Source: a virus (lineage: Duplodnaviria; Caudoviricetes). Taken from it: 64,000 bases of DNA. The stretch covers positions 1 to 64,000 of IMG/VR virus record IMGVR_UViG_3300028048_000068. One strand, written 5' to 3'. The notes beneath the pieces are model-generated. The model was not told the origin of the DNA. It saw only the letters and a program-made list of their open reading frames with translations, and made no database searches. The position numbers were made by a program, and so were the translations under genes. Shown one piece after another: positions 9,426-23,799 of this stretch (its first letter is position 1; every line of letters starts with the position of its first letter).

Positions 9426-9501
9426 GACCCATTAGCTCAGTTGGAAGAGCATTTGACTTTTAATCAAAGGGTCCGCAGTTCAAGTCTGCGATGGGTCACC
9501 A
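9426..9501 (+). tRNA. tRNA-Lys(TTT)
   Basis: cloverleaf, loop CTTTTAA, encoded CCA. Confidence 0.95.
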
Positions 9502-10153: not shown

Positions 10154-10239
10154 GGAGCATTGACGTAATGGTATCGTAGCGGATTGCTAATCCGTCCAAC
10201 CGCAGGGTTGTACAAGTTCGAATCTTGTATGCTCCGCCA
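10154..10239 (+). tRNA. tRNA-Ser(GCT)
   Basis: cloverleaf with long variable arm, G73, CCA. Confidence 0.95.
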
Positions 10240-10355
10240 TTTAAAAATTTGAAAAATTATGAAAATTTTTCTATAATATATATAGAAAGTTGAAGAGAGG
10301 ATATTAAAAAATTCTACTTAGTAATACAAGCAAATATATAAAAAGGAGAAAATTA

Positions 10356-10478
10356 ATGTTTAAGTCGTTTGCATGGAATCTTAATAGAGAACAAGAGGTT
10401 ATCGTAGATAGCCTGGTTTCATGCGCCCCTATTACAGGAAAATTTTATGGTAGGGATAAAAGGGTAATACCGATTTAG
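10356..10478 (+). CDS. 40-aa putative leader (attenuator) peptide MFKSFAWNLNREQEVIVDSLVSCAPITGKFYGRDKRVIPI
   Basis: AAAGGAG RBS, downstream of promoter 10248-10278; its 3' end carries a copy of the terminator 3' arm. Confidence 0.7.
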   Translation: MFKSFAWNLNREQEVIVDSLVSCAPITGKFYGRDKRVIPI

Positions 10479-10504
10479 CATTATTTTCTATAAGTGTAAT
10501 GTAT

Positions 10505-10544
10505 AAGCGGTATTACTCAAAGTGGGTAATACCGCTTTTATATT
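10505..10544 (+). terminator. intrinsic terminator with an alternative (antiterminator) pairing to 10462-10472
   Basis: AAGCGGTATTACTC-aaagt-GGGTAATACCGCTT followed by TTATATT, immediately before tRNA-Glu. Confidence 0.75.
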
Positions 10545-10548
10545 ATAT

Positions 10549-10627
10549 GGTGCGTTGGAGAAGTGGTTTAACTCCCTGCCCTTTCACGGCAGTATTTTCA
10601 TCGGTTCGAATCCGATACGCATCACCA
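10549..10627 (+). tRNA. tRNA-Glu(TTC)
   Basis: cloverleaf, loop CTTTCAC, CCA. Confidence 0.95.
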
Positions 10628-10632
10628 GATAT

Positions 10633-10707
10633 GGTCTATTCGTATAACGGTTATTATATTCGGTTGTCAGCCGAGGGACAAGGGTTCAACTCCCTTATAG
10701 ACCGCCA
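10633..10707 (+). tRNA. tRNA-Asp(GTC)
   Basis: cloverleaf, loop TTGTCAG, GCCA. Confidence 0.93.
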
Positions 10708-10714
10708 TTTATAT

Positions 10715-10793
10715 GCGCCGATAGTCCAACTGGCAGGAGACGTTTGGTTTAGGCCCAAAACAGTGAAGAGTTCGAATCTCTCTCGGCGCACCA
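10715..10793 (+). tRNA. tRNA-Leu(TAG), short variable loop
   Basis: TTTGG-TTTAGGC-CCAAA arm, A73, CCA. Confidence 0.9.
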
Positions 10794-10798
10794 TTTAT

Positions 10799-10876
10799 CT
10801 CCGTGTAGCGCAGTTTGCTTAGCGCGCCCCGTTTGGGCCGGGAAGGTCGTAGGTTGAAATCCTACCACGGAGACCA
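10799..10876 (+). tRNA. tRNA-Pro(TGG)
   Basis: cloverleaf, C1:G72, CCA. Confidence 0.93.
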
Positions 10877-10879
10877 TAT

Positions 10880-10954
10880 GTCGCATTCGTATATCAACTA
10901 ATATATCAGCTTGCCATGCTGAAGAAACCGGGGTAGCACCGGTATGCGGCTCCA
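10880..10954 (+). tRNA. tRNA-Gly(GCC), non-canonical D/T loops
   Basis: TCAGC-TTGCCAT-GCTGA arm, U73, CCA; T-loop GGTAGCA. Confidence 0.85.
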
Positions 10955-11037
10955 TTATTAATTTACCAAGGGTTTAAAAAAATATACTTGCTCCAAAAAT
11001 TTCTCACTTAATAGTAGAAGGGAAATAGGAGGATAAA

Positions 11038-11793
11038 ATGATAGGTATTTATAAGTTTGTAAATAAAATAAATGGTAAAATTTATATAGGTCAATCTAAT
11101 GATATACAACGTAGAATAAAAGACCATTATTACAAAGCACACAATCCGACTGGAGGTAATTATCATTCACCTTTACACTTAGCCATTCGAAAATATGGGT
11201 GGGACAATTTTCAGATAGAAGTATTAGAAGAATGTAATATAGAAGAATTAGATGAGAAAGAGATATATTATATTCAATTATATAATTCTATTACGCCTAA
11301 TGGTTATAATATTATGGCCGGTGGACAGCAATTTAGAAAAGATACTTCAGATTCTAATAAAAAAAGATGTAGTCAATGTGGTAAAATTATAGATAGAAAA
11401 GCTCATACTGGTTTATGTCTTGATTGCTACAGACAATTTTTGAGAAAAGATATTCCAACAAAAGAAGAATTAAAACAACTATTAATAGATAATAATGGCA
11501 ATTTTACTAAAGTAGGTAATATGTTTAATGTTAGTTCTTCTTCAATAGTGAGATGGTGTAAAAGTTATAATTTACCATATTATAGTGAAGATTATAAAAC
11601 CAAAAAAGAAAAACAAGCATATAAACGCCCAGTAAATCAAATTGATAAAAACACCAATGAAATTATTGCCACCTATGAATCTTCTATGGATGCCGCGAGG
11701 GCATTGGGGAAGAAAAAAGGTAGTCATATAACTGAAGTATGTAAGGGAATACATAAGACAGCATATGGTTACAAGTGGCAATATGCTGAATGA
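11038..11793 (+). CDS. GIY-YIG homing endonuclease (Zn finger, HTH, NUMOD1)
   Basis: GIYKFVNKINGKIYIGQS; CSQC..CLDC; C-terminal TAYGYKWQY. Confidence 0.9.
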   Translation: MIGIYKFVNKINGKIYIGQSNDIQRRIKDHYYKAHNPTGGNYHSPLHLAIRKYGWDNFQIEVLEECNIEELDEKEIYYIQLYNSITPNGYNIMAGGQQFRKDTSDSNKKRCSQCGKIIDRKAHTGLCLDCYRQFLRKDIPTKEELKQLLIDNNGNFTKVGNMFNVSSSSIVRWCKSYNLPYYSEDYKTKKEKQAYKRPVNQIDKNTNEIIATYESSMDAARALGKKKGSHITEVCKGIHKTAYGYKWQYAE

Positions 11794-11874
11794 GTGCCAG
11801 TCGCCTAGAGGTCGATGGCGCCTGCCTTCCAAGCAGGTATATCATCGTGAGTTCGAATCTCACCTGGCACTCCA
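11794..11874 (+). tRNA. tRNA-Gly(TCC)
   Basis: CCTGC-CTTCCAA-GCAGG, U73, CCA. Confidence 0.93.
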
Positions 11875-11878
11875 ATAA

Positions 11879-11967
11879 GGAGGGTTGGCCGAGTGGTCGA
11901 AGGCGCTAGTCCTGAAAACTAGAAGGCGTAACAGCCTCGCGGGTTCAAATCCACGCACCCTCCTCCA
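11879..11967 (+). tRNA. tRNA-Ser(TGA)
   Basis: long variable arm; loop CCTGAAA (C33); CCA. Confidence 0.88.
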
Positions 11968-11968
11968 T

Positions 11969-12042
11969 ACTCCTATAATTCAATGGTAGAATAGGCGACT
12001 TTTAATCGTCTTATCCCAGTTCAACTCTGGGTGGGAGTACCA
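11969..12042 (+). tRNA. tRNA-Lys(TTT), second divergent copy
   Basis: GGCGA-CTTTTAA-TCGTC, CCA. Confidence 0.9.
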
Positions 12043-12045
12043 TAT

Positions 12046-12121
12046 ACCCCATTAGCTTAATGGATAGAGTACCAGCCTACGAAGCTGCGGGATAAGCGTT
12101 CGACTCGCTTATGGGGTACCA
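12046..12121 (+). tRNA. tRNA-Arg(ACG)
   Basis: loop CTACGAA, CCA. Confidence 0.92.
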
Positions 12122-12265
12122 CTTGGTAGTTTTATGGGAAGTTTGTCTACCAGTTGTTATCAAATCACCCTACGCCACGGTTAATGGTTCAAATTCTGCC
12201 GGCAAACAAACAATAGAAGTCTCGCAAGGTGAAAGCGTTCCAATAAGGTGTTCGGCGTATTTTAT

Positions 12266-12342
12266 AGGACACTAGTCCAATTGGCAGAGACAAACGGCTC
12301 AAACCCGTTGTGTTGTCGGTTCGAATCCGACGTGTCCTACCA
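12266..12342 (+). tRNA. tRNA-Leu(CAA), short variable loop
   Basis: AACGG-CTCAAAC-CCGTT, A73, CCA. Confidence 0.9.
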
Positions 12343-12346
12343 TTGT

Positions 12347-12423
12347 GCAGCCTTAGTTCATTCAGTTAGAACGCCGTTCTGATAAAGCGGAGGTGCGTGG
12401 AGCATAGCCACGAGGCTGTACCA
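12347..12423 (+). tRNA. tRNA-Ile(GAT)
   Basis: loop CTGATAA; T-loop AGCATAG; CCA. Confidence 0.9.
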
Positions 12424-12426
12424 TAT

Positions 12427-12502
12427 ACACGATTAGTTCAGTTAGGAGAACGCTAGTCTTACAAACTAGAGGTCACAGGGGCAGAGCCTGTATCGTGTAC
12501 CA
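12427..12502 (+). tRNA. tRNA-Val(TAC)
   Basis: loop CTTACAA; T-loop GGCAGAG; CCA. Confidence 0.9.
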
Positions 12503-12507
12503 TTTGT

Positions 12508-12584
12508 GGGGTCATAGCTCAGTTTGGGAGAGCGCCTGCCTTGCACGCAGGAGGTCGCGGGTTCGATGCCTGTTGGCTCCACCA
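12508..12584 (+). tRNA. tRNA-Ala(TGC)
   Basis: G3:U70, TGC anticodon, CCA. Confidence 0.95.
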
Positions 12585-12587
12585 TAT

Positions 12588-12661
12588 AGCCGTTTCGTCT
12601 AATAGTAGGACAACTGACTCTGACTCAGTAAATATTCGTGCAATTCGGATAACGGCCGCCA
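12588..12661 (+). tRNA. tRNA-Gln(CTG)
   Basis: ACTGA-CTCTGAC-TCAGT, G73, CCA. Confidence 0.88.
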
Positions 12662-12662
12662 T

Positions 12663-12737
12663 GTCCTGTTAGTTCAACGGATAGAACAATGGTCTTCTAA
12701 ACCATTAATCACAGTTCGATTCTGCGGCGGGATACCA
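12663..12737 (+). tRNA. tRNA-Arg(TCT)
   Basis: loop CTTCTAA, CCA. Confidence 0.92.
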
Positions 12738-12742
12738 ATTAT

Positions 12743-12827
12743 CGCAGCGTATACCATTAAAGAGGTGGGGAGGACTGTAAATCCTTCGTCTTAGACTCGC
12801 CTGGAGCGTTACCAGGAGCTGCGACCA
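12743..12827 (+). tRNA. tRNA-Tyr(GTA), C1:G72
   Basis: loop CTGTAAA, long variable arm, A73, CCA; T-loop AGCGTTA. Confidence 0.88.
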
Positions 12828-12830
12828 TAT

Positions 12831-12906
12831 GCCTAGATAGCTCAGCAGGTAGAGCGCTCGGCTGAAGACCGAGTGGCCGTTAGTTCAATTCTAACTCTAG
12901 GCACCA
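12831..12906 (+). tRNA. tRNA-Phe(GAA)
   Basis: cloverleaf, CCA. Confidence 0.95.
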
Positions 12907-12909
12907 TAT

Positions 12910-12985
12910 GGACCAATAGCACAATGGTTGGTGCAACCGGCTCATAACCGGTAGGTTCAAGGTTCAAATCCTTGTTGGTCCACCA
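12910..12985 (+). tRNA. tRNA(CAT), probably Ile2 (lysidine type)
   Basis: GGACC acceptor and CGG-CTCATAA-CCG arm resemble Firmicute tRNA-Ile2. Confidence 0.85.
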
Positions 12986-12989
12986 TTGC

Positions 12990-13065
12990 GCGGCTATGGT
13001 GTAACTGGAAGCATTCGGGCCTCCAAAGCCTTGAGACCTATGTTCAATTCGTAGTGGCCGCGCCA
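12990..13065 (+). tRNA. tRNA-Trp(CCA)
   Basis: loop CTCCAAA, G73, CCA. Confidence 0.9.
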
Positions 13066-13068
13066 TAT

Positions 13069-13145
13069 GGACGTGTACCCAAGTGGCTCAAGGGGACAGG
13101 TTGCAACCCTGTTATTCACTGGTTCGAATCCAGTCGCGTTCTCCA
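13069..13145 (+). tRNA. tRNA-Cys(GCA)
   Basis: loop TTGCAAC, U73, CCA. Confidence 0.93.
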
Positions 13146-13220
13146 GTAGAAGTTAGTTTAGTGGTAAAACCCCAGATTGTGGCTCTGGTGTCACGAGTTC
13201 GATTCTCGTACTTCTCCCCA
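13146..13220 (+). tRNA. tRNA-His(GTG)
   Basis: G-1/C73, loop TTGTGGC, CCA; abuts tRNA-Cys with no spacer. Confidence 0.92.
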
Positions 13221-13285
13221 GATAATTTGAAATTTTCCGAAAATTCTTATATAATTATAATATAAGATAAAGAAAGGAAATTATT

Positions 13286-13561
13286 ATGAAGAATGAACTT
13301 GTTTTTAAAAACCATGAAAATGGTTATAAGGTAGCAAAGATATTACTTGATGAGGGTAATGTGGTTATGTTGTCTTATGAAGAGCAATTTCTTATCGTTA
13401 ATTGGGAATATGGTGAAGATGGATACGCAGATAGAAATTGTGTCATCTTTATGCAGAAAGAGGAATATGAGGAACTTGAAGATAGACTATGTGATGCTAT
13501 TTTCACAGACCTTAGAAATGATATTAAGAGAGGCCGAATTAAAGACCTCTCTGATATATAA
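13286..13561 (+). CDS. hypothetical protein
   Basis: ORF track; own promoter and RBS. Confidence 0.8.
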   Translation: MKNELVFKNHENGYKVAKILLDEGNVVMLSYEEQFLIVNWEYGEDGYADRNCVIFMQKEEYEELEDRLCDAIFTDLRNDIKRGRIKDLSDI

Positions 13562-13826
13562 ATTCCTTCAATAGACCGCGATTGAGCGGGGTGAGGAAGG
13601 TTGACGCTTTGCTGGTGATGAGGCGATTTATCAACGAAGAGAAATCGGTTAACCATCGTAGTAGCAGGGACTCTTAATGCAAGTGGGTCTGCCCACCCTG
13701 TGAGGTTCGCAACCTTTGATAGCGCGGCCGCTGAGTACGTATAGGCGGCTGGATTGAATACGTCCATGGGCGATTGACCGACGAGGTCACAAATGAGCCA
13801 GGCGGAGGCTTTGTATCCGCCTTTTA
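13562..13826 (+). ncRNA. candidate structured ncRNA
   Basis: GC-rich ORF-free run of hairpins ending in GGCGGA-N-TCCGCC-TTTT. Confidence 0.35.
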
Positions 13827-13829
13827 TAT

Positions 13830-13906
13830 GGCCCATTAGTCCAACTGGTAGAGACAACCGATTTAAGCTCGGTACAGTTTCCGTTCGAATCGGAAATGGG
13901 CTACCA
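13830..13906 (+). tRNA. tRNA-Leu(TAA), short variable loop
   Basis: ACCGA-TTTAAGC-TCGGT, A73, CCA. Confidence 0.9.
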
Positions 13907-14158
13907 TAACTTATTTACAAAAACGGTTGAACCTACCTCTCCAAGAGGTAGGCGGCCGCAGAGTAAGTAAGACATAGAATTTGAAAAATTTATAAATTCT
14001 TGCTATAATATATATGTAAGGTAAGAAGAGAGAATAAAAGAGTGGTAAATACGTCATCTCTCATAGCGAATCACCACCACCTTACATTTCTATAGCTCAA
14101 CTACCATGTTGTAGAAGGAGTGTCTTTAGACGTCCTGCCTGTGTAGGGCGTTTTCTGT

Positions 14159-14306
14159 CAACGAATATAGTGTAATAGGATAGCACGCCGCCCTCATCGG
14201 TTAGTTCTTCCGAGAAGCAGGTACGCGACTGTAGTTATGGCTTGCATGCGAGTCATATAACTAACCATCGAGCGCGGAAGATGGGGTTCGAATCCCCACT
14301 CGTTGA
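14159..14306 (+). ncRNA. tRNA-like RNA with ~70-nt insertion in the anticodon arm
   Basis: acceptor CAACGA/TCGTTG, D-arm GTGT/GCAC, T-arm TGGGG-TTCGAAT-CCCCA; no encoded CCA. Confidence 0.6.
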
Positions 14307-14450
14307 AACAGACAGAGGTTTGTACGCTTTAACTGTCTTTAACTTAAATAAAAACCTGCACCCGCCACAGGGGCCGTATTTCAACCTACCAAGGTAGCGC
14401 CTGGCATGATGTATTGAAAGAAATGTGGTACAGAACATACTGTATAAAAG

Positions 14451-14926
14451 AAGCGTGCTTTGCGGATTCGTTGGCGTTAAATGAATTCGTCGTTCTGCGG
14501 CGGCACCGCAGACCGATCTATGGCGGTTCCATAGGGAGTACTGCTACTCAGTTCTTAGCGGCGGAGGCGCGACCGTTTGTTAAACCATCGCATGGGAGAA
14601 GGCGTGATAGCTAAGAAACTCCATCTGCGCGGATGTCCTACCGCGCCGTGAGCCGAACGAGGTGAAATTAAATTGGTACACCGCACAACACGCGGTATAT
14701 AAATTTGAGCGTCTACTACAGTTTAAGGTGTCTGGGCTGTAGACCACGTTAGAAAAAACTAATACACGACACATTGGCTTTCGGATATTCTCCAGTGGTT
14801 AGTCAGACCACAGAAAGCTTTGACTTCAAGAAAATCAGAAAACGGTGAGAGTCCGTGAGGAGTCCGTTGGCGTAGACGCAGCGTATCCTAGGTAGACAGT
14901 CTACTGCTTGGAAGTGGCACGCTTAA
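14451..14926 (+). ncRNA. candidate large structured ncRNA (~475 nt)
   Basis: closed by AAGCGTGC/GCACGCTT; many internal hairpins; no credible ORF; sits just before tRNA-fMet. Confidence 0.5.
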
Positions 14927-14941
14927 ACTTTCACGCGTTAT

Positions 14942-15017
<76 letters not shown>

Positions 15018-18856: not shown

Positions 18857-18949
18857 CATTTCTATAGACCGCATCCATGCGGTCTTTTAAATTTGAAAAA
18901 ATTAAAATTTTCTGATATAATTATATATATAAGAAGGGAGAAAATTATT

Positions 18950-20140
18950 ATGAATCTCAAAATATTTACAAACAACATCGAGCCACAAGCTCTTTCTCAA
19001 ATATATACACTTACGTCTCAGCCTGCTTTTGCCGACTGCAAAATCCGCATAATGCCGGACGTCCACGCTGGCGCAGGCTGTGTCATCGGATTCACTGCAG
19101 ACCTTGGTGAGAAAGTTATCCCTAACATTGTCGGAGTCGACATCGGCTGCGGCATGTTAACGGTTGAGCTTGGACAGATTGACATCGACTATGCAAAGTT
19201 AGACTCAATCATTCATATGTATATACCAAGCGGGCGCAATGTACATGCAGCTGCGACATATCCTGTTAAGACAATGAAGCAGTTATATTGTTACGATGCA
19301 TTGAAAAACAAAGACAGAATTAGATGTTCTCTCGGTACGCTCGGTGGTGGTAATCACTTTATCGAAATTGACGAGGATACAAAGGGCAACAAATATCTTG
19401 TTATCCATTCTGGTTCTCGTAACCTCGGTAAGCAAGTAGCGGATTACTATCAGAAGGTTGCGATTGACAATCTCTATGGTACTAATGACTTAGCTCAGGC
19501 GCAGAATGAGTTAATCGCTTCATTAAAAGCACAAGGTAGAGAAAGAGAAATATCGGGAGCAATAGAGGAACTTCATAAGTCCTATAAGGCAAAGACTATA
19601 GATATTCCAAAAGAATTATGCTATCTTGAGGGCGAGGATAGACTTAACTATCTCCACGATATGAAGATATGTCAAGAGTTTGCTGTGGCTAACCGCGCAA
19701 TGATGGCGAATATAATCTATCGTCATATGCACTGGGCGCCAGTATCATCATTTGAAACAATACACAACTATATCGAGCATGAGACAAATATGGTACGTAA
19801 AGGTGCTATATCTGCGAAATATGGTGAGCATGTATTAATTCCAATCAACATGCGCGATGGCTGCATTGTAGGTATCGGTAAAGGTAACGAAGATTGGAAC
19901 TGTTCTGCTCCGCATGGCGCCGGCCGCCTTATGAGTAGAGCAAAGGCGAAAGCAAATATATCACTTGATGATTTTGAAGCTTCGATGGAAGGTATTTATA
20001 CTACTTCGGTTAATCAGTCTACGCTTGATGAGTCTCCAATGGCTTATAAGTCGATGGATGAGATACTTGAAAATATAGGAGATACTGTTGAGGTTGAACG
20101 TATTATCAAGCCGGTATATAATTTCAAAGCGTCGGAGTAG
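18950..20140 (+). CDS. rtcB: RtcB-family RNA ligase (tRNA repair/splicing)
   Basis: PDVHAG, GVDIGCGM, GTLGGGNHFIE, HSGSR, HNY, RKGA, HGAGR motifs; own promoter and terminator. Confidence 0.95.
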   Translation: MNLKIFTNNIEPQALSQIYTLTSQPAFADCKIRIMPDVHAGAGCVIGFTADLGEKVIPNIVGVDIGCGMLTVELGQIDIDYAKLDSIIHMYIPSGRNVHAAATYPVKTMKQLYCYDALKNKDRIRCSLGTLGGGNHFIEIDEDTKGNKYLVIHSGSRNLGKQVADYYQKVAIDNLYGTNDLAQAQNELIASLKAQGREREISGAIEELHKSYKAKTIDIPKELCYLEGEDRLNYLHDMKICQEFAVANRAMMANIIYRHMHWAPVSSFETIHNYIEHETNMVRKGAISAKYGEHVLIPINMRDGCIVGIGKGNEDWNCSAPHGAGRLMSRAKAKANISLDDFEASMEGIYTTSVNQSTLDESPMAYKSMDEILENIGDTVEVERIIKPVYNFKASE

Positions 20141-20616: not shown

Positions 20617-20780
20617 GTAAGGAGGTATCTATGGATAGAATAGTTACTTTTCAGTTTGGTTCACAAACTCTTGAAGTATATATAGATGATGTACCTGAAG
20701 ATGCAACACCAAGTGAACTTAGAGATGAAGCGATTGATATATTTTTGATGAATTCGCATTATTATGTAGAGGAGGCTTAA

Positions 20781-21128
20781 ATGGGAACAAACTATTATGT
20801 AGTACCGAATAGACCATCTATAGCAGAGCCTATTCACATAGGAAAATCTTCTATGGGTTGGATGTTTCTGTTTCAAGATGCAAGTGAACTTTATAGGGAG
20901 GTTCCAGTAGTATGGCATTGTTATGAAGATGTCGAAGATTGGCTTTATAGACATACCGTTGAAAGTGAGCAGTATGTTATTATAGACGAATATGATGAAA
21001 TTATTTCATTTGATGATTTTATTGAACTGGTTGCGCGTAAACAGAAACAATTTAAGGATAATCCAGACAACTTTAGATATTGTCGTAATGTTGGCGGATA
21101 CAGATTTGAAGAAGGAGAGTTTTGCTAA
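20781..21128 (+). CDS. conserved phage hypothetical protein (MGTNYY...HIGKSSMGW)
   Basis: ORF track; GGAGG RBS. Confidence 0.8.
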   Translation: MGTNYYVVPNRPSIAEPIHIGKSSMGWMFLFQDASELYREVPVVWHCYEDVEDWLYRHTVESEQYVIIDEYDEIISFDDFIELVARKQKQFKDNPDNFRYCRNVGGYRFEEGEFC

Positions 21129-21294
21129 TGGAAGAAGGTACAATCAGAACCATACAGCTTTGGCTCGATGACTCATTCATGGAAATAGAACTTAACCAGC
21201 CAAAAGACTGGGACGAAGATAAATTCACCGAGGAAGCAATTAACTATGTATTGAGTAATATCGCAATTGATATACTGTAGAAAGGGAGATATAT

Positions 21295-21735
21295 ATGATA
21301 GTTAAAGTTGTTTTTGGATGTGGCACTAAAATTTATGCTTATAATACAGACCTTAATATGCTTAGGGGTGGAGTATATGATATAGTTTCTAGTGGTAGCC
21401 TTGGTAGCCTTAGTGGTTCAAGAGGATATGACTCATATGTGACAGTAATACATATTGCGTCTGGTTATGACCCAAAGCTGAGGACGATTACTGAGGCGCG
21501 CCTTATCAAAGGACCTCGCAAACCAGAGAAACCCTATAAGCAGGTTGTTGTTAATAAATCTAAGCGTACTATTTGTGTAGTATGGAAAGATGGTACACAC
21601 ACAGTAATGAAGTGTCATTCAGAAGATGAGTGGGATGAAGAAAAAGGTATTGCTATGTGCTTTATGAAAAAAGTCTTTCAGAATAGAGGTTGTTACTATG
21701 ATACCTTTAGAGATGTAACATATATGGGAGAATGA
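21295..21735 (+). CDS. hypothetical protein
   Basis: ORF track; RBS. Confidence 0.8.
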   Translation: MIVKVVFGCGTKIYAYNTDLNMLRGGVYDIVSSGSLGSLSGSRGYDSYVTVIHIASGYDPKLRTITEARLIKGPRKPEKPYKQVVVNKSKRTICVVWKDGTHTVMKCHSEDEWDEEKGIAMCFMKKVFQNRGCYYDTFRDVTYMGE

Positions 21736-21935
21736 TGGATATAAAAGATATATACAAGCGTTTTAAACAAAATCATCGTAATGATAATGGGGGTATAAAT
21801 CTATACCCTCAATTTGATTATGATTTAAAAATGTTAATGGAATGGATAGAGAGTGAGTTAGATTTGGCGTCAGATACAAATGTTGATTGTAGTTGGCGCG
21901 CACCCGAAGGAGGAAATGAATGGCAAGGACAATAG
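21732..21935 (+). CDS. hypothetical protein
   Basis: ORF track; coupled. Confidence 0.65.
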   Translation: MMDIKDIYKRFKQNHRNDNGGINLYPQFDYDLKMLMEWIESELDLASDTNVDCSWRAPEGGNEWQGQ

Positions 21936-22120
21936 TCGATATAGTATTTTCAGTTGCAATATTAGTTGGAATTTGCCTTCATTATTTTTATATTGGTGAT
22001 ATATCTATAGGAACATTTTATTTAGTTCTTATAGCCAATTATGTTGGTGCGCGTTATCTACTTATGTCTGATTTAGATTTTGCCATTTATGTTGCAGCAT
22101 TGGAGTCAGAAGATGAGTGA
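21920..22120 (+). CDS. small membrane protein
   Basis: AGGAGG RBS; hydrophobic. Confidence 0.65.
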   Translation: MARTIVDIVFSVAILVGICLHYFYIGDISIGTFYLVLIANYVGARYLLMSDLDFAIYVAALESEDE

Positions 22121-22298
22121 ACCATATGTGTGTATGAGATGTAAGGCGGCTGGCGCCAAGTCGATTATTAAATATAAGATTATCGAAGATATAACAGGAG
22201 ATTCAGTTAAATTCAAAGGACAACTTTGTGAACGTTGTTTCAATGAGTTAATGACACCGGCGCAGAATTCGGAAAACGTAAACAAAGAAACAAAATAA
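22113..22298 (+). CDS. Zn-ribbon hypothetical protein
   Basis: CMRC...CERC. Confidence 0.65.
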   Translation: MSEPYVCMRCKAAGAKSIIKYKIIEDITGDSVKFKGQLCERCFNELMTPAQNSENVNKETK

Positions 22299-22357: not shown

Positions 22358-23017
22358 ATGGACAGACAGTTAGAAGCATGCCTTGCAGCAGAAAGAATAG
22401 TTAATGCAGTACAGAGTGCAGGTTGTGATTTATCAGACCCACATTCTATTATTCAGAACGCTTGGACAGACCTTCCAGATGGCATACAGTATGCTTATGG
22501 CGCATCGCGTCTTGTGCTTTGGGACGAAGATTACTGCGACTATGTAGTGAAAATCGCACTTGACCCAGCATATGAGAAGTATTGTCGGCGCGAGGTTGAA
22601 GTATATGCAGATGCAGTACAGGAAGGGCTTGCCGATTCTTTTGGTTGGTGTATGTGTTATTCTGAACCAATAGAAGAAGTGGATAACTATGTGCCTGGCA
22701 TCTATGTAATGGAGTACCTTGATTGTAATGAGGACGAGGTCTATGATGATGCCTGGTGTTATGGATACAAAGAGTACTGTCGTAGTAATGGTCTTGATGC
22801 TTCCAATTATGATAATGCTGATGAATATAATGATTGGAATTGCGAAGATGAAGGTATGTATTTGGATTACTTTGAGTCTGAAATGGGCCGCGACTATTTA
22901 AGAGCGTTTGAAGTCTTTCTTTGCAAGTGGCGCATCACAGATTTGCATCAAGGAAATTTCTCAACAGGTAAGCCTTCGCATATGAAGATAGTAGATTATG
23001 CAGGCTGGGGTTGGTAG
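22358..23017 (+). CDS. protein-kinase-like fold protein (putative Ser/Thr kinase)
   Basis: YGASRLV (Gly loop), VVKIA (Lys), REVEVY (helix C Glu), VMEYL (hinge), DLHQGNF (catalytic loop), IVDYAG (DFG equivalent). Confidence 0.7.
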   Translation: MDRQLEACLAAERIVNAVQSAGCDLSDPHSIIQNAWTDLPDGIQYAYGASRLVLWDEDYCDYVVKIALDPAYEKYCRREVEVYADAVQEGLADSFGWCMCYSEPIEEVDNYVPGIYVMEYLDCNEDEVYDDAWCYGYKEYCRSNGLDASNYDNADEYNDWNCEDEGMYLDYFESEMGRDYLRAFEVFLCKWRITDLHQGNFSTGKPSHMKIVDYAGWGW

Positions 23018-23091
23018 ACACCAATCCCAATTTAGTATAAGATGGGATTGGTAAATCCACTTATATATAGAATAAAGTGGAGGAAAATATT

Positions 23092-23799
23092 ATGCCAGTT
23101 AAAAATGAAATAGGAAATAGATATGGTAAATTAGTTGTTTTAGAGCGAGCAGAAAATAATAAATATGGAGATGCACAATGGTTATGTCAATGCGATTGTG
23201 GTAATCAAGCTATTGTAAAAGGCGTTAGTTTACGTAATGGTCATACAAAATCATGTGGTTGCTTAAAAAGTAAAAATTTGGCTGAAATAAGTCGTAGTAA
23301 GATTATTAATTTATCTGGACAACGCTTTGGACGATTAACTGTTATAGAACCGACATATAATCAACAGAAAAAAATGAGATGGCTATGTCAATGTGAATGT
23401 GGCAGTAAAGTTTTAGTACGTTCTTCTAATTTACTTTCAGGAGAAACTAAATCTTGTGGTTGCATCAAATCAGAAGGTGAATATGCTATTGCGAAATATT
23501 TATCATCTCATAATTATAATTTTAGTCGCGAATATATGTTTGCTGATTTACGTAGGGTTTTTCCTCTTCGTTTTGATTTTGCTGTTTTTGATACAGAGAA
23601 CAAACTTCAGTTTTTAATTGAATACGATGGTCCGCATCATTGGTATTGTGAAGGATGGCAGAATATTGAGTTAATTCAAGAATGTGATATTAAAAAAGAA
23701 GAATATTGTAAATTACATAATATTCCTTTATATAGAATAAATTATAGTGAAAATATTATTAATCGTTTAGAAGAAATTCTAAAAGAACAGGAGAATTAA
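23092..23799 (+). CDS. homing endonuclease: two GxxxGxLxV..WLCQCxCG repeats plus Vsr/DUF559-like nuclease domain
   Basis: repeat motifs; RFDFAV..LIEYDGPHH..D..K..YC. Confidence 0.75.
   Translation: MPVKNEIGNRYGKLVVLERAENNKYGDAQWLCQCDCGNQAIVKGVSLRNGHTKSCGCLKSKNLAEISRSKIINLSGQRFGRLTVIEPTYNQQKKMRWLCQCECGSKVLVRSSNLLSGETKSCGCIKSEGEYAIAKYLSSHNYNFSREYMFADLRRVFPLRFDFAVFDTENKLQFLIEYDGPHHWYCEGWQNIELIQECDIKKEEYCKLHNIPLYRINYSENIINRLEEILKEQEN

Follow-up and report, generated by a model that had tools for sequence, protein, structure and literature searches.

The leader-peptide attenuators of amino-acid operons (trpL, hisL, leuL, thrL, and pheL) have long had a theory of their action (PMC1183508), and two other small open reading frames (ORFs) are known to answer to translation more generally. 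The bmrB leader of Bacillus subtilis bmrCD is a case of ribosome-coupled attenuation in Bacillota, in which induction needs translation of the ORF and responds to a general slowing of the ribosome rather than to one amino acid (PMC4191407), while the toiL upstream ORF of the Escherichia coli topAI-yjhQ operon senses many kinds of translation stress (PMC12121999). The reason that phages encode tRNAs has been disputed for decades, with recent work favouring an escape from tRNA-targeting defences (PMC10264068, PMC11555353), and the timing and control of expression of phage tRNA arrays have hardly been studied. Here, we describe a leader at the head of a tRNA array in a Caudoviricetes phage recovered from bovine gut/rumen samples. 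The window analyzed is the first 64 kb of IMG/VR virus record IMGVR_UViG_3300028048_000068, which is judged complete (whole genome, 136.6 kb). As in the amino-acid attenuators, a short ORF, here of predicted translation, is combined with an anti-antiterminator (1:2), an antiterminator (2:3), and an intrinsic terminator (3:4); the ORF ends on segment 2, where a terminating ribosome would favour the terminator, and the untranslated leader is predicted to terminate. We propose that the element is a trp-like, ribosome-operated transcription attenuator heading the phage tRNA operon, a reading to which we assign a probability of about 0.5. Attenuation is known for amino-acid operons; we found no published case for tRNA genes, and a full-text literature search turned up no paper describing an attenuator on a phage tRNA array, as an earlier first-pass annotation of this DNA had supposed.

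The promoter, ribosome-binding site, 40-codon ORF, and hairpin lie at the positions proposed in that annotation (Table 1). Transcription is predicted, from the position of the promoter, to start near 10285, giving a leader of about 260 nucleotides (nt). The Shine-Dalgarno (SD) sequence stands out from the background, with an SD-like 5-mer preceding just 5% of the ATG codons in the window, and an open frame of 39 codons arises by chance in 2.8% of dinucleotide shuffles (0.028). The frame, SD, ATG, and stop are conserved across 16 aligned sequences, the sole indel being 3 nt long and in frame; the stop is TAA in 5 of the 16 and TAG otherwise. Downstream, 11 nt before tRNA-Glu, the terminator-like hairpin folds at -23.2 kcal/mol (z = -7.1), and the first four T of its U-rich tail are invariant in the relatives. 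The exact 11-nt repeat GGGTAATACCG, said earlier to link the end of the ORF to the terminator 3' arm, has just two copies in the 64-kb window, at 10462-10472 and 10524-10534; it extends to 14 nt with one mismatch (...CCGaTT versus ...CCGcTT), and none of 100 shuffles held three or more matches. The leader's own hairpin is the only one of 34 terminator-like hairpins genome-wide with a copy of its 3' arm (at least 7 nt, within 150 nt upstream), and the repeat is therefore not due to chance.

This repeat gives the terminator 5' arm two mutually exclusive partners, as had been proposed, and the second pairing reaches beyond the 11 base pairs (bp) originally claimed. Folded without the terminator 3' arm, 10462-10484 and 10496-10518 form an antiterminator of about 22 bp at -21.7 kcal/mol. 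Segment 2, the copy of the terminator 3' arm, covers the last four and a half codons of the ORF and belongs to a hub strand with three modelled options, namely, pairing with the SD/AUG region in helix A, pairing with 10496-10518 in the antiterminator, or cover by a terminating ribosome. In the predicted free-leader fold, helix A encloses the ORF as a compact domain, with helices B, C, and D inside it and the terminator on its 3' side; the minimum-energy fold of the whole leader reaches -75.4 kcal/mol (z = -6.9), the ORF domain alone has z = -4.05, and RNAalifold applied to the 16 sequences returns the helices of the free-leader fold. Three mutually exclusive folds are thus predicted for the leader, helix A with the terminator, the antiterminator, and the terminator alone.

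The competing helices are maintained in the relatives. Antiterminator pairing is kept in 15 of 15 aligned sequences (window included) despite the variable spacer, which supplies half of this helix though no part of the leader is more variable (nucleotide diversity [pi], 0.21). In the alignment, 99.7% of the antiterminator cells are paired, compared with 40 to 54% when the partner strand is slid, and 9 of its 23 pairs vary yet stay paired; for the terminator-state consensus, the values are 98.9% and 37 to 47%. The two structures are near-isoenergetic in every relative, at -20.8 to -24.8 kcal/mol for the antiterminator and -20.5 to -23.2 kcal/mol for the terminator, and the hairpin arms are nearly frozen (pi, 0.026 to 0.032, versus 0.21 to 0.32 in the flanks).

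A rival reading is a constitutive structured leader whose alternative pairings regulate nothing, in which the hairpin is a leaky terminator, a structure that protects or processes the 3' end after an RNase P cut, or an RNase III target. Such a leader would accommodate stems extended to about 22 bp and a hairpin placed so close to tRNA-Glu that leaders ended by termination and leaders cut by RNase P would hardly differ. It would also be in keeping with the RNA-library contigs that traverse the hairpin and with the stable hairpins, lacking a U tract, that unrelated gut phages have 1 to 4 nt before their first tRNA. It leaves unexplained, however, why an 11- to 14-nt copy of the 3' arm stands exactly at the end of the ORF, as for no other of the 34 hairpins, why the variable spacer continues to extend the antiterminator pairing, why all relatives keep the two folds near-isoenergetic, and why the arms are frozen (pi, 0.03) instead of freely co-varying. 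We regard a constitutive leader as unlikely.

Constraint folding suggests how a ribosome could operate the switch. As free RNA, 14 of the 16 sequences adopt helix A and the terminator (helix D too); with the initiation region masked, the antiterminator is the minimum-energy structure in 9 of 16 and near-isoenergetic in the others; and with a ribosome footprint at the stop codon, the terminator forms in 16 of 16, in line with the original proposal that a ribosome finishing the leader restores termination. The same proposal had predicted read-through after knockout of the start codon. Here the models differ from it: helix A locks the antiterminator strand in untranslated RNA, and a start-codon knockout should therefore terminate, lowering read-through as in trp superattenuation.

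We hypothesize the following sequence of events. Inferred in it are that the ORF is translated, that the hairpin terminates transcription, which way the response goes, and what triggers it physiologically. A standard phage promoter would yield the leader with its translated 40-codon ORF. With no ribosome present, the hub strand would pair with the SD/AUG region, the role of segment 1 being taken by the ORF's own initiation region, and the terminator would form, so that transcription would stop 4 to 10 nt before tRNA-Glu. If a ribosome has entered the ORF but not yet reached roughly its last five codons when the polymerase makes 10496-10537, helix A would be broken and the antiterminator would form, blocking the terminator and letting RNA polymerase enter the tRNA genes. 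A ribosome on the last codons or the stop would cover the hub strand, and the terminator would form again. The tRNA genes would then be transcribed more when the leader is decoded slowly compared with the pace of transcription. No promoter-like site was found between the hairpin and tRNA-Glu, the next on the same strand being at 13227, and the array is therefore transcribed only through the hairpin.

A total of 15 full-length relatives of the leader were collected from rumen/gut phage contigs, and they keep the module of promoter, SD, ORF, hairpin, and tRNA-Glu array, as well as a codon-diverse ORF (17 to 20 kinds of amino acids); the first-pass annotation had suggested looking in related phages for such an ORF with a covarying repeat. 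The tRNA-Glu(UUC) array lies 3' of the hairpin in all 12 relatives with downstream sequence, at 12 to 21 nt from the hairpin core in 11 relatives and 137 nt in one (L088), while the upstream neighbor differs (tRNA-Ser, an ORF of 177 to 186 amino acids, or a permease). Because the array follows the hairpin in every such relative while the upstream neighbor changes, promoter, leader, hairpin, and array behave as one module. The leader peptides form 25 clusters of 80 to 95% identity, and no more distant relatives were found beyond this set. A DNA search of 50,697 phage records returned matches at the tRNA level only, and the invariant core of the leader had no match in 185k prokaryote genomes and so points to no prophage or host. 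A degenerate peptide pattern run on metagenomes gave mostly chance matches and two real ones (L088 and L132).

The pattern of diversity within the ORF points to the RNA as the target of selection. Paired sites have a pi of 0.061 versus 0.193 at unpaired sites, and pairing status outweighs codon position as a determinant of ORF diversity. At unpaired codon positions 1, 2, and 3, pi is 0.146, 0.186, and 0.238, close to the 0.19 to 0.21 of the non-coding flanks; overall, diversity in the non-coding flanks ranges from 0.19 to 0.32, and the hairpin arms stand at 0.03. Codons 15 to 27, like helices B and C, are invariant even at four-fold degenerate sites, and codons 11 to 14, 17, and 31 to 36 form loops in which the amino acids vary freely. 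Because unpaired codons drift at the rate of non-coding flanks, selection acts on the RNA folds, with the peptide sequence hardly selected, and a frame that is kept while its product drifts is the signature of a regulatory leader ORF.

An ordinary small-protein gene with its own terminator, whose 40-amino-acid peptide is functional and whose downstream tRNAs are reached by incidental read-through, would agree with the strong SD, the 25 peptide clusters, and the 19 residues invariant among them. Those residues coincide with RNA stems and are invariant at synonymous sites too, however, and at codon positions 1 and 2 outside the stems the rate of change is about that of non-coding DNA. With no PHROG match to the peptide and the repeat left without an explanation, we consider this reading highly improbable. 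The in silico observations establish the parts of the leader, show that these are mutually exclusive and conserved, and place selection on the RNA and not on the peptide, and the comparative evidence argues that a real, conserved, bistable leader switch stands at the head of this tRNA operon.

Alternatively, the switch could respond to a protein, tRNA, or small ligand that acts in trans by binding the folded ORF domain, as in a riboswitch, T-box, or ribosomal-protein leader, with translation of the ORF secondary. The layout is indeed riboswitch-like, with a three-way domain whose closing helix shares its 3' strand with the antiterminator; selection on RNA structure and not on the peptide would be expected of it, and some unpaired stretches are invariant (GCGCCCC at about 10422-10428 and the block at 10314-10329). 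Yet most loops and junctions drift at a neutral rate, unlike ligand pockets, and the consensus SD, the ATG, the open 40-codon frame, and the conserved stop on the hub strand would have no explanation. A search of the leader with Rfam 15 found no family at the gathering threshold, only tRNAs passing in the region; the best cis-regulatory match was the L20 leader (20.4 bits versus 58.7 required), and the best of any kind was RsaOG on the opposite strand (26.4 versus 50). We judge operation by a trans factor to be quite unlikely. The T-box in particular (RF00230) was rejected, with no match at E values up to 10 on 10270-10560 and an antiterminator that is a continuous helix. The leader segment GGGUAAUACCGC does resemble the T-box motif.

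Several points weigh against the ribosome-operated attenuator. In the models, a lone ribosome stalled mid-ORF leaves helix A in place, which is prevented only when the initiation region or the first codons are occupied; initiation rate and coupling kinetics would therefore set the stall window and, in the extreme, whether the response is positive or negative. The structure counts come from predicted folds scored on the same sequences that were used for prediction, and the clade is shallow (80 to 95% identity), so that structural support consists almost entirely of conservation and wobble-compatible transitions, with double compensatory changes in only one antiterminator pair and three terminator-state pairs. 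The leader ORF has no tandem regulatory codons and no enrichment of rare codons; its codon adaptation, at the 21st percentile, is unremarkable, and a rare-codon sensor was rejected on this ground. Finally, ribosome-coupled attenuation is uncommon in Bacillota, and the portal protein of this phage resembles only those of phages with Bacillota hosts, in agreement with its sigma-A type promoter and its strong SD.

The trigger was originally proposed to be tRNA depletion, sensed through a pan-codon peptide. The underlying count is correct: the peptide uses 19 of the 20 amino acids and 31 distinct codons, values reached by 2.9% and 1.2%, respectively, of the 40-codon windows in the long genes of this phage. 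A pan-codon sensor of tRNA depletion is not shown, and we judge it less likely than not. The ORF has neither regulatory codons nor a rare-codon bias, and, because the rarer GC-rich codons sit in stems, GC-rich structure within an AT-rich frame may be what makes its codons so diverse. On a broader reading, also less likely than not, ribosome speed would exert closed-loop control over all the tRNA genes of the phage, the codon-diverse leader being a generic decoding probe and the array being switched on only when host decoding slows for any reason. Under such a scheme, defence nucleases that cleave tRNAs, shut-off of the host, or mismatched codons in late expression would be possible causes of the slow-down, and a link to anticodon-nuclease defences is purely conjectural.

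Table 1. Coordinates of the leader, its alternative RNA strands, and the surrounding tRNA genes and promoter elements (window positions except where stated)
Feature	Position	Strand	Remarks
tRNA genes upstream of the promoter	Lys at 9426; Ser at 10154-10239		ARAGORN
Promoter, TTGAAA-17 nt-TATAAT	10249-10277	+	Sigma-70/sigma-A type; 11/12 consensus positions; kept in all relatives
5' untranslated leader	10285-10342	+	Variable (pi 0.19); conserved block at about 10314-10329
Shine-Dalgarno sequence, AAGGAG	10343-10348	+	7 nt 5' of ATG; kept in 16/16 aligned rows
Helix A, 5' strand (SD, AUG, first codons)	10344-10367	+	Predicted pairing with 10471-10489; anti-antiterminator
Leader ORF, 40 codons	10356-10478	+	Stop TAG (10476-10478)
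Helices B and C, core of the ORF domain	10370-10425	+	B, 10370-10380 with 10415-10425; C, hairpin 10396-10414
Segment 1 (AUUAC)	10431-10435	+	5-bp helix D with GUAAU (10464-10468), inside segment 2
Hub strand	10462-10489	+	Segment 2 (10462-10475), stop codon, start of spacer
Antiterminator, 3' strand	10496-10518	+	Last 14 nt (10505-10518) = terminator 5' arm (segment 3)
Intrinsic-terminator-like hairpin and U-rich tail	10505-10544	+	Hairpin core 10505-10537; 15 pairs, GC-anchored
tRNA array	10549-13220	+	19 detectable tRNA genes; first is tRNA-Glu(UUC)
GIY-YIG homing-endonuclease ORF, 251 amino acids	11038-11793		Interrupts the array between tRNA-Pro and tRNA-Gly
Copies of the ~55-nt promoter element, window	4913, 4995, 10243, 13978, 20163, 26413	+
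Copies of the ~55-nt promoter element, window	31362, 31490	-
Further copies of the element, whole genome (G000)	91349, 92434	-

The leader promoter is one copy of a conserved element of about 55 nt with at least 10 copies genome-wide, which spans the -35, the -10, and the first transcribed bases. The array behind it was originally counted as 21 consecutive tRNA genes, a figure that has to be revised: 18 are called by ARAGORN and one by Rfam (12427-12499), an endonuclease ORF interrupts the series, and two tRNA genes lie upstream of the promoter. In one relative (L009), a GIY-YIG homing-endonuclease gene directly follows tRNA-Ser (from about 600 onward). Two gaps in the array have no called tRNA (12121-12266 and 12737-12831), and they may hold degenerate tRNAs or tRNA-like elements; the second contains a Tyr-like anticodon arm (GGACTGTAAATCC) where relatives carry tRNA-Tyr. 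About 2 kb past the last tRNA, a gene for an RtcB-type tRNA/RNA ligase is encoded at 18893-20140 (PHROG 1075, E = 2.8e-132), with relatives of 61 to 97% identity in at least 350 viral contigs. Its presence nearby fits a theme of tRNA damage and proves nothing about the leader. The 80 RtcB-bearing phage loci surveyed have small arrays and non-terminator hairpins of unrelated sequence. Among the RtcB-bearing human-gut contigs (L216, L224, L231, L232, L234, and others), the hairpin folds at -14 to -21 kcal/mol, has no U tract, ends 1 to 4 nt before the first tRNA, and carries a conserved TATATCAC motif on its 5' side; the sequence of these hairpins is unrelated to that of the leader in the window.

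The stop codon of the leader raised one further candidate, read-through of TAG by a suppressor tRNA as positive feedback. This was rejected, given the TAA stops among the aligned sequences, a genome in which ARAGORN finds no CTA tRNA, and a read-through extension that is unconserved among relatives and just 4 codons long in this phage. Elsewhere in the genome, some frames are compatible with TAG as a sense codon, including ORFs with 5 to 7 in-frame TAG at 20764-21171, 21732-22298, and 22358-23218 and a frame of 2,220 codons holding 2 TAG (G000, 102110-108772), and gene callers use TAG=Q for some relatives; partial recoding of the stop codon is one possible reading. Among 83 long ORFs, however, 21 end in TAG, and none of the TAG-rich ORFs matches a PHROG. 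The nearest named phage by portal protein, Phass-1 (29.5% identity), is filed in a "code 15 clade" and carries tRNA-Sup-CTA; its annotation shows scattered tRNAs and no obvious equivalent of the leader.

Contigs from two rumen RNA libraries of one sample span the leader and the hairpin and run far into the tRNA array. As the data are contigs only, neither 3' ends nor a fall in coverage across the hairpin can be read from them; they show the joined leader-array form in an RNA library, with DNA carry-over possible, which is a weak hint only, and are silent on the frequency of termination. One contig (X5) begins at 10339/10340, right after Illumina adapter letters, and runs to 13471, and position 10339-10340 may be a frequent RNA 5' end just 5' of the SD and about 55 nt past the predicted start. 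In another RNA run, 10236 and 13244 are linked within one contig by 776 other letters; this contig represents a relative with the whole promoter-leader-array cassette replaced, not a termination product. The stretch 12680-14990 reaches an RNA-contig depth of about 2,800 to 46,000 (peaks at about 13540-13770 and 14257-14990), compared with about 160 to 220 in the flanks. It sits between tRNA-His, tRNA-Leu(UAA), and tRNA-Met, has no long plus-strand ORF after 13561, is GC-rich (0.43 to 0.52), folds strongly, is conserved in three relatives (L009, L088, and L010), and matches no Rfam family. It is a candidate source of at least one abundant and stable RNA not described before.

If the ribosome-operated attenuator is real, the phage would gauge decoding capacity and supply tRNAs on demand, which would make compensation versus counter-defence a testable question. 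Leader-peptide attenuation would then reach beyond enzymes to the decoding machinery itself, and a particular feature of the design would be an anti-antiterminator formed by the ORF's own ribosome-binding site.

Compared with the amino-acid attenuators, four of the five defining features of leader-peptide attenuation are found in silico, with translation of the short ORF as a prediction, the fifth, cognate tandem regulatory codons, being absent. The phage leader has no run of codons for a single amino acid and instead uses 19 amino acids; its segment 1 corresponds to its own SD/AUG region; it would gate tRNA genes rather than biosynthetic enzymes; and it has no sequence or Rfam relationship to these leaders. 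It would therefore work like a leader-peptide attenuator yet is not a member of the trp/his type. T-box riboswitches are likewise terminator/antiterminator leaders tied to tRNA status in Bacillota, but the phage antiterminator has neither a UGGN bulge nor a specifier stem, and an ORF is present. With bmrB, the phage leader shares a Bacillota host, a small ORF of similar size, and three alternative stem-loops that include an intrinsic terminator; in bmrB, whose ORF itself contains the terminator, ribosome-targeting antibiotics are the trigger and a drug exporter is the target, and the case was tested by experiment (PMC4191407). With toiL, the phage leader would share the character of a multipurpose sensory ORF, in which stalls at various positions remodel the downstream RNA, although toiL is chromosomal and not phage-borne and acts through occlusion of a ribosome-binding site and Rho-dependent termination, with no intrinsic terminator (PMC12121999). 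By analogy, these two generic stall sensors, bmrB and toiL, would be the systems nearest in spirit to the phage leader.

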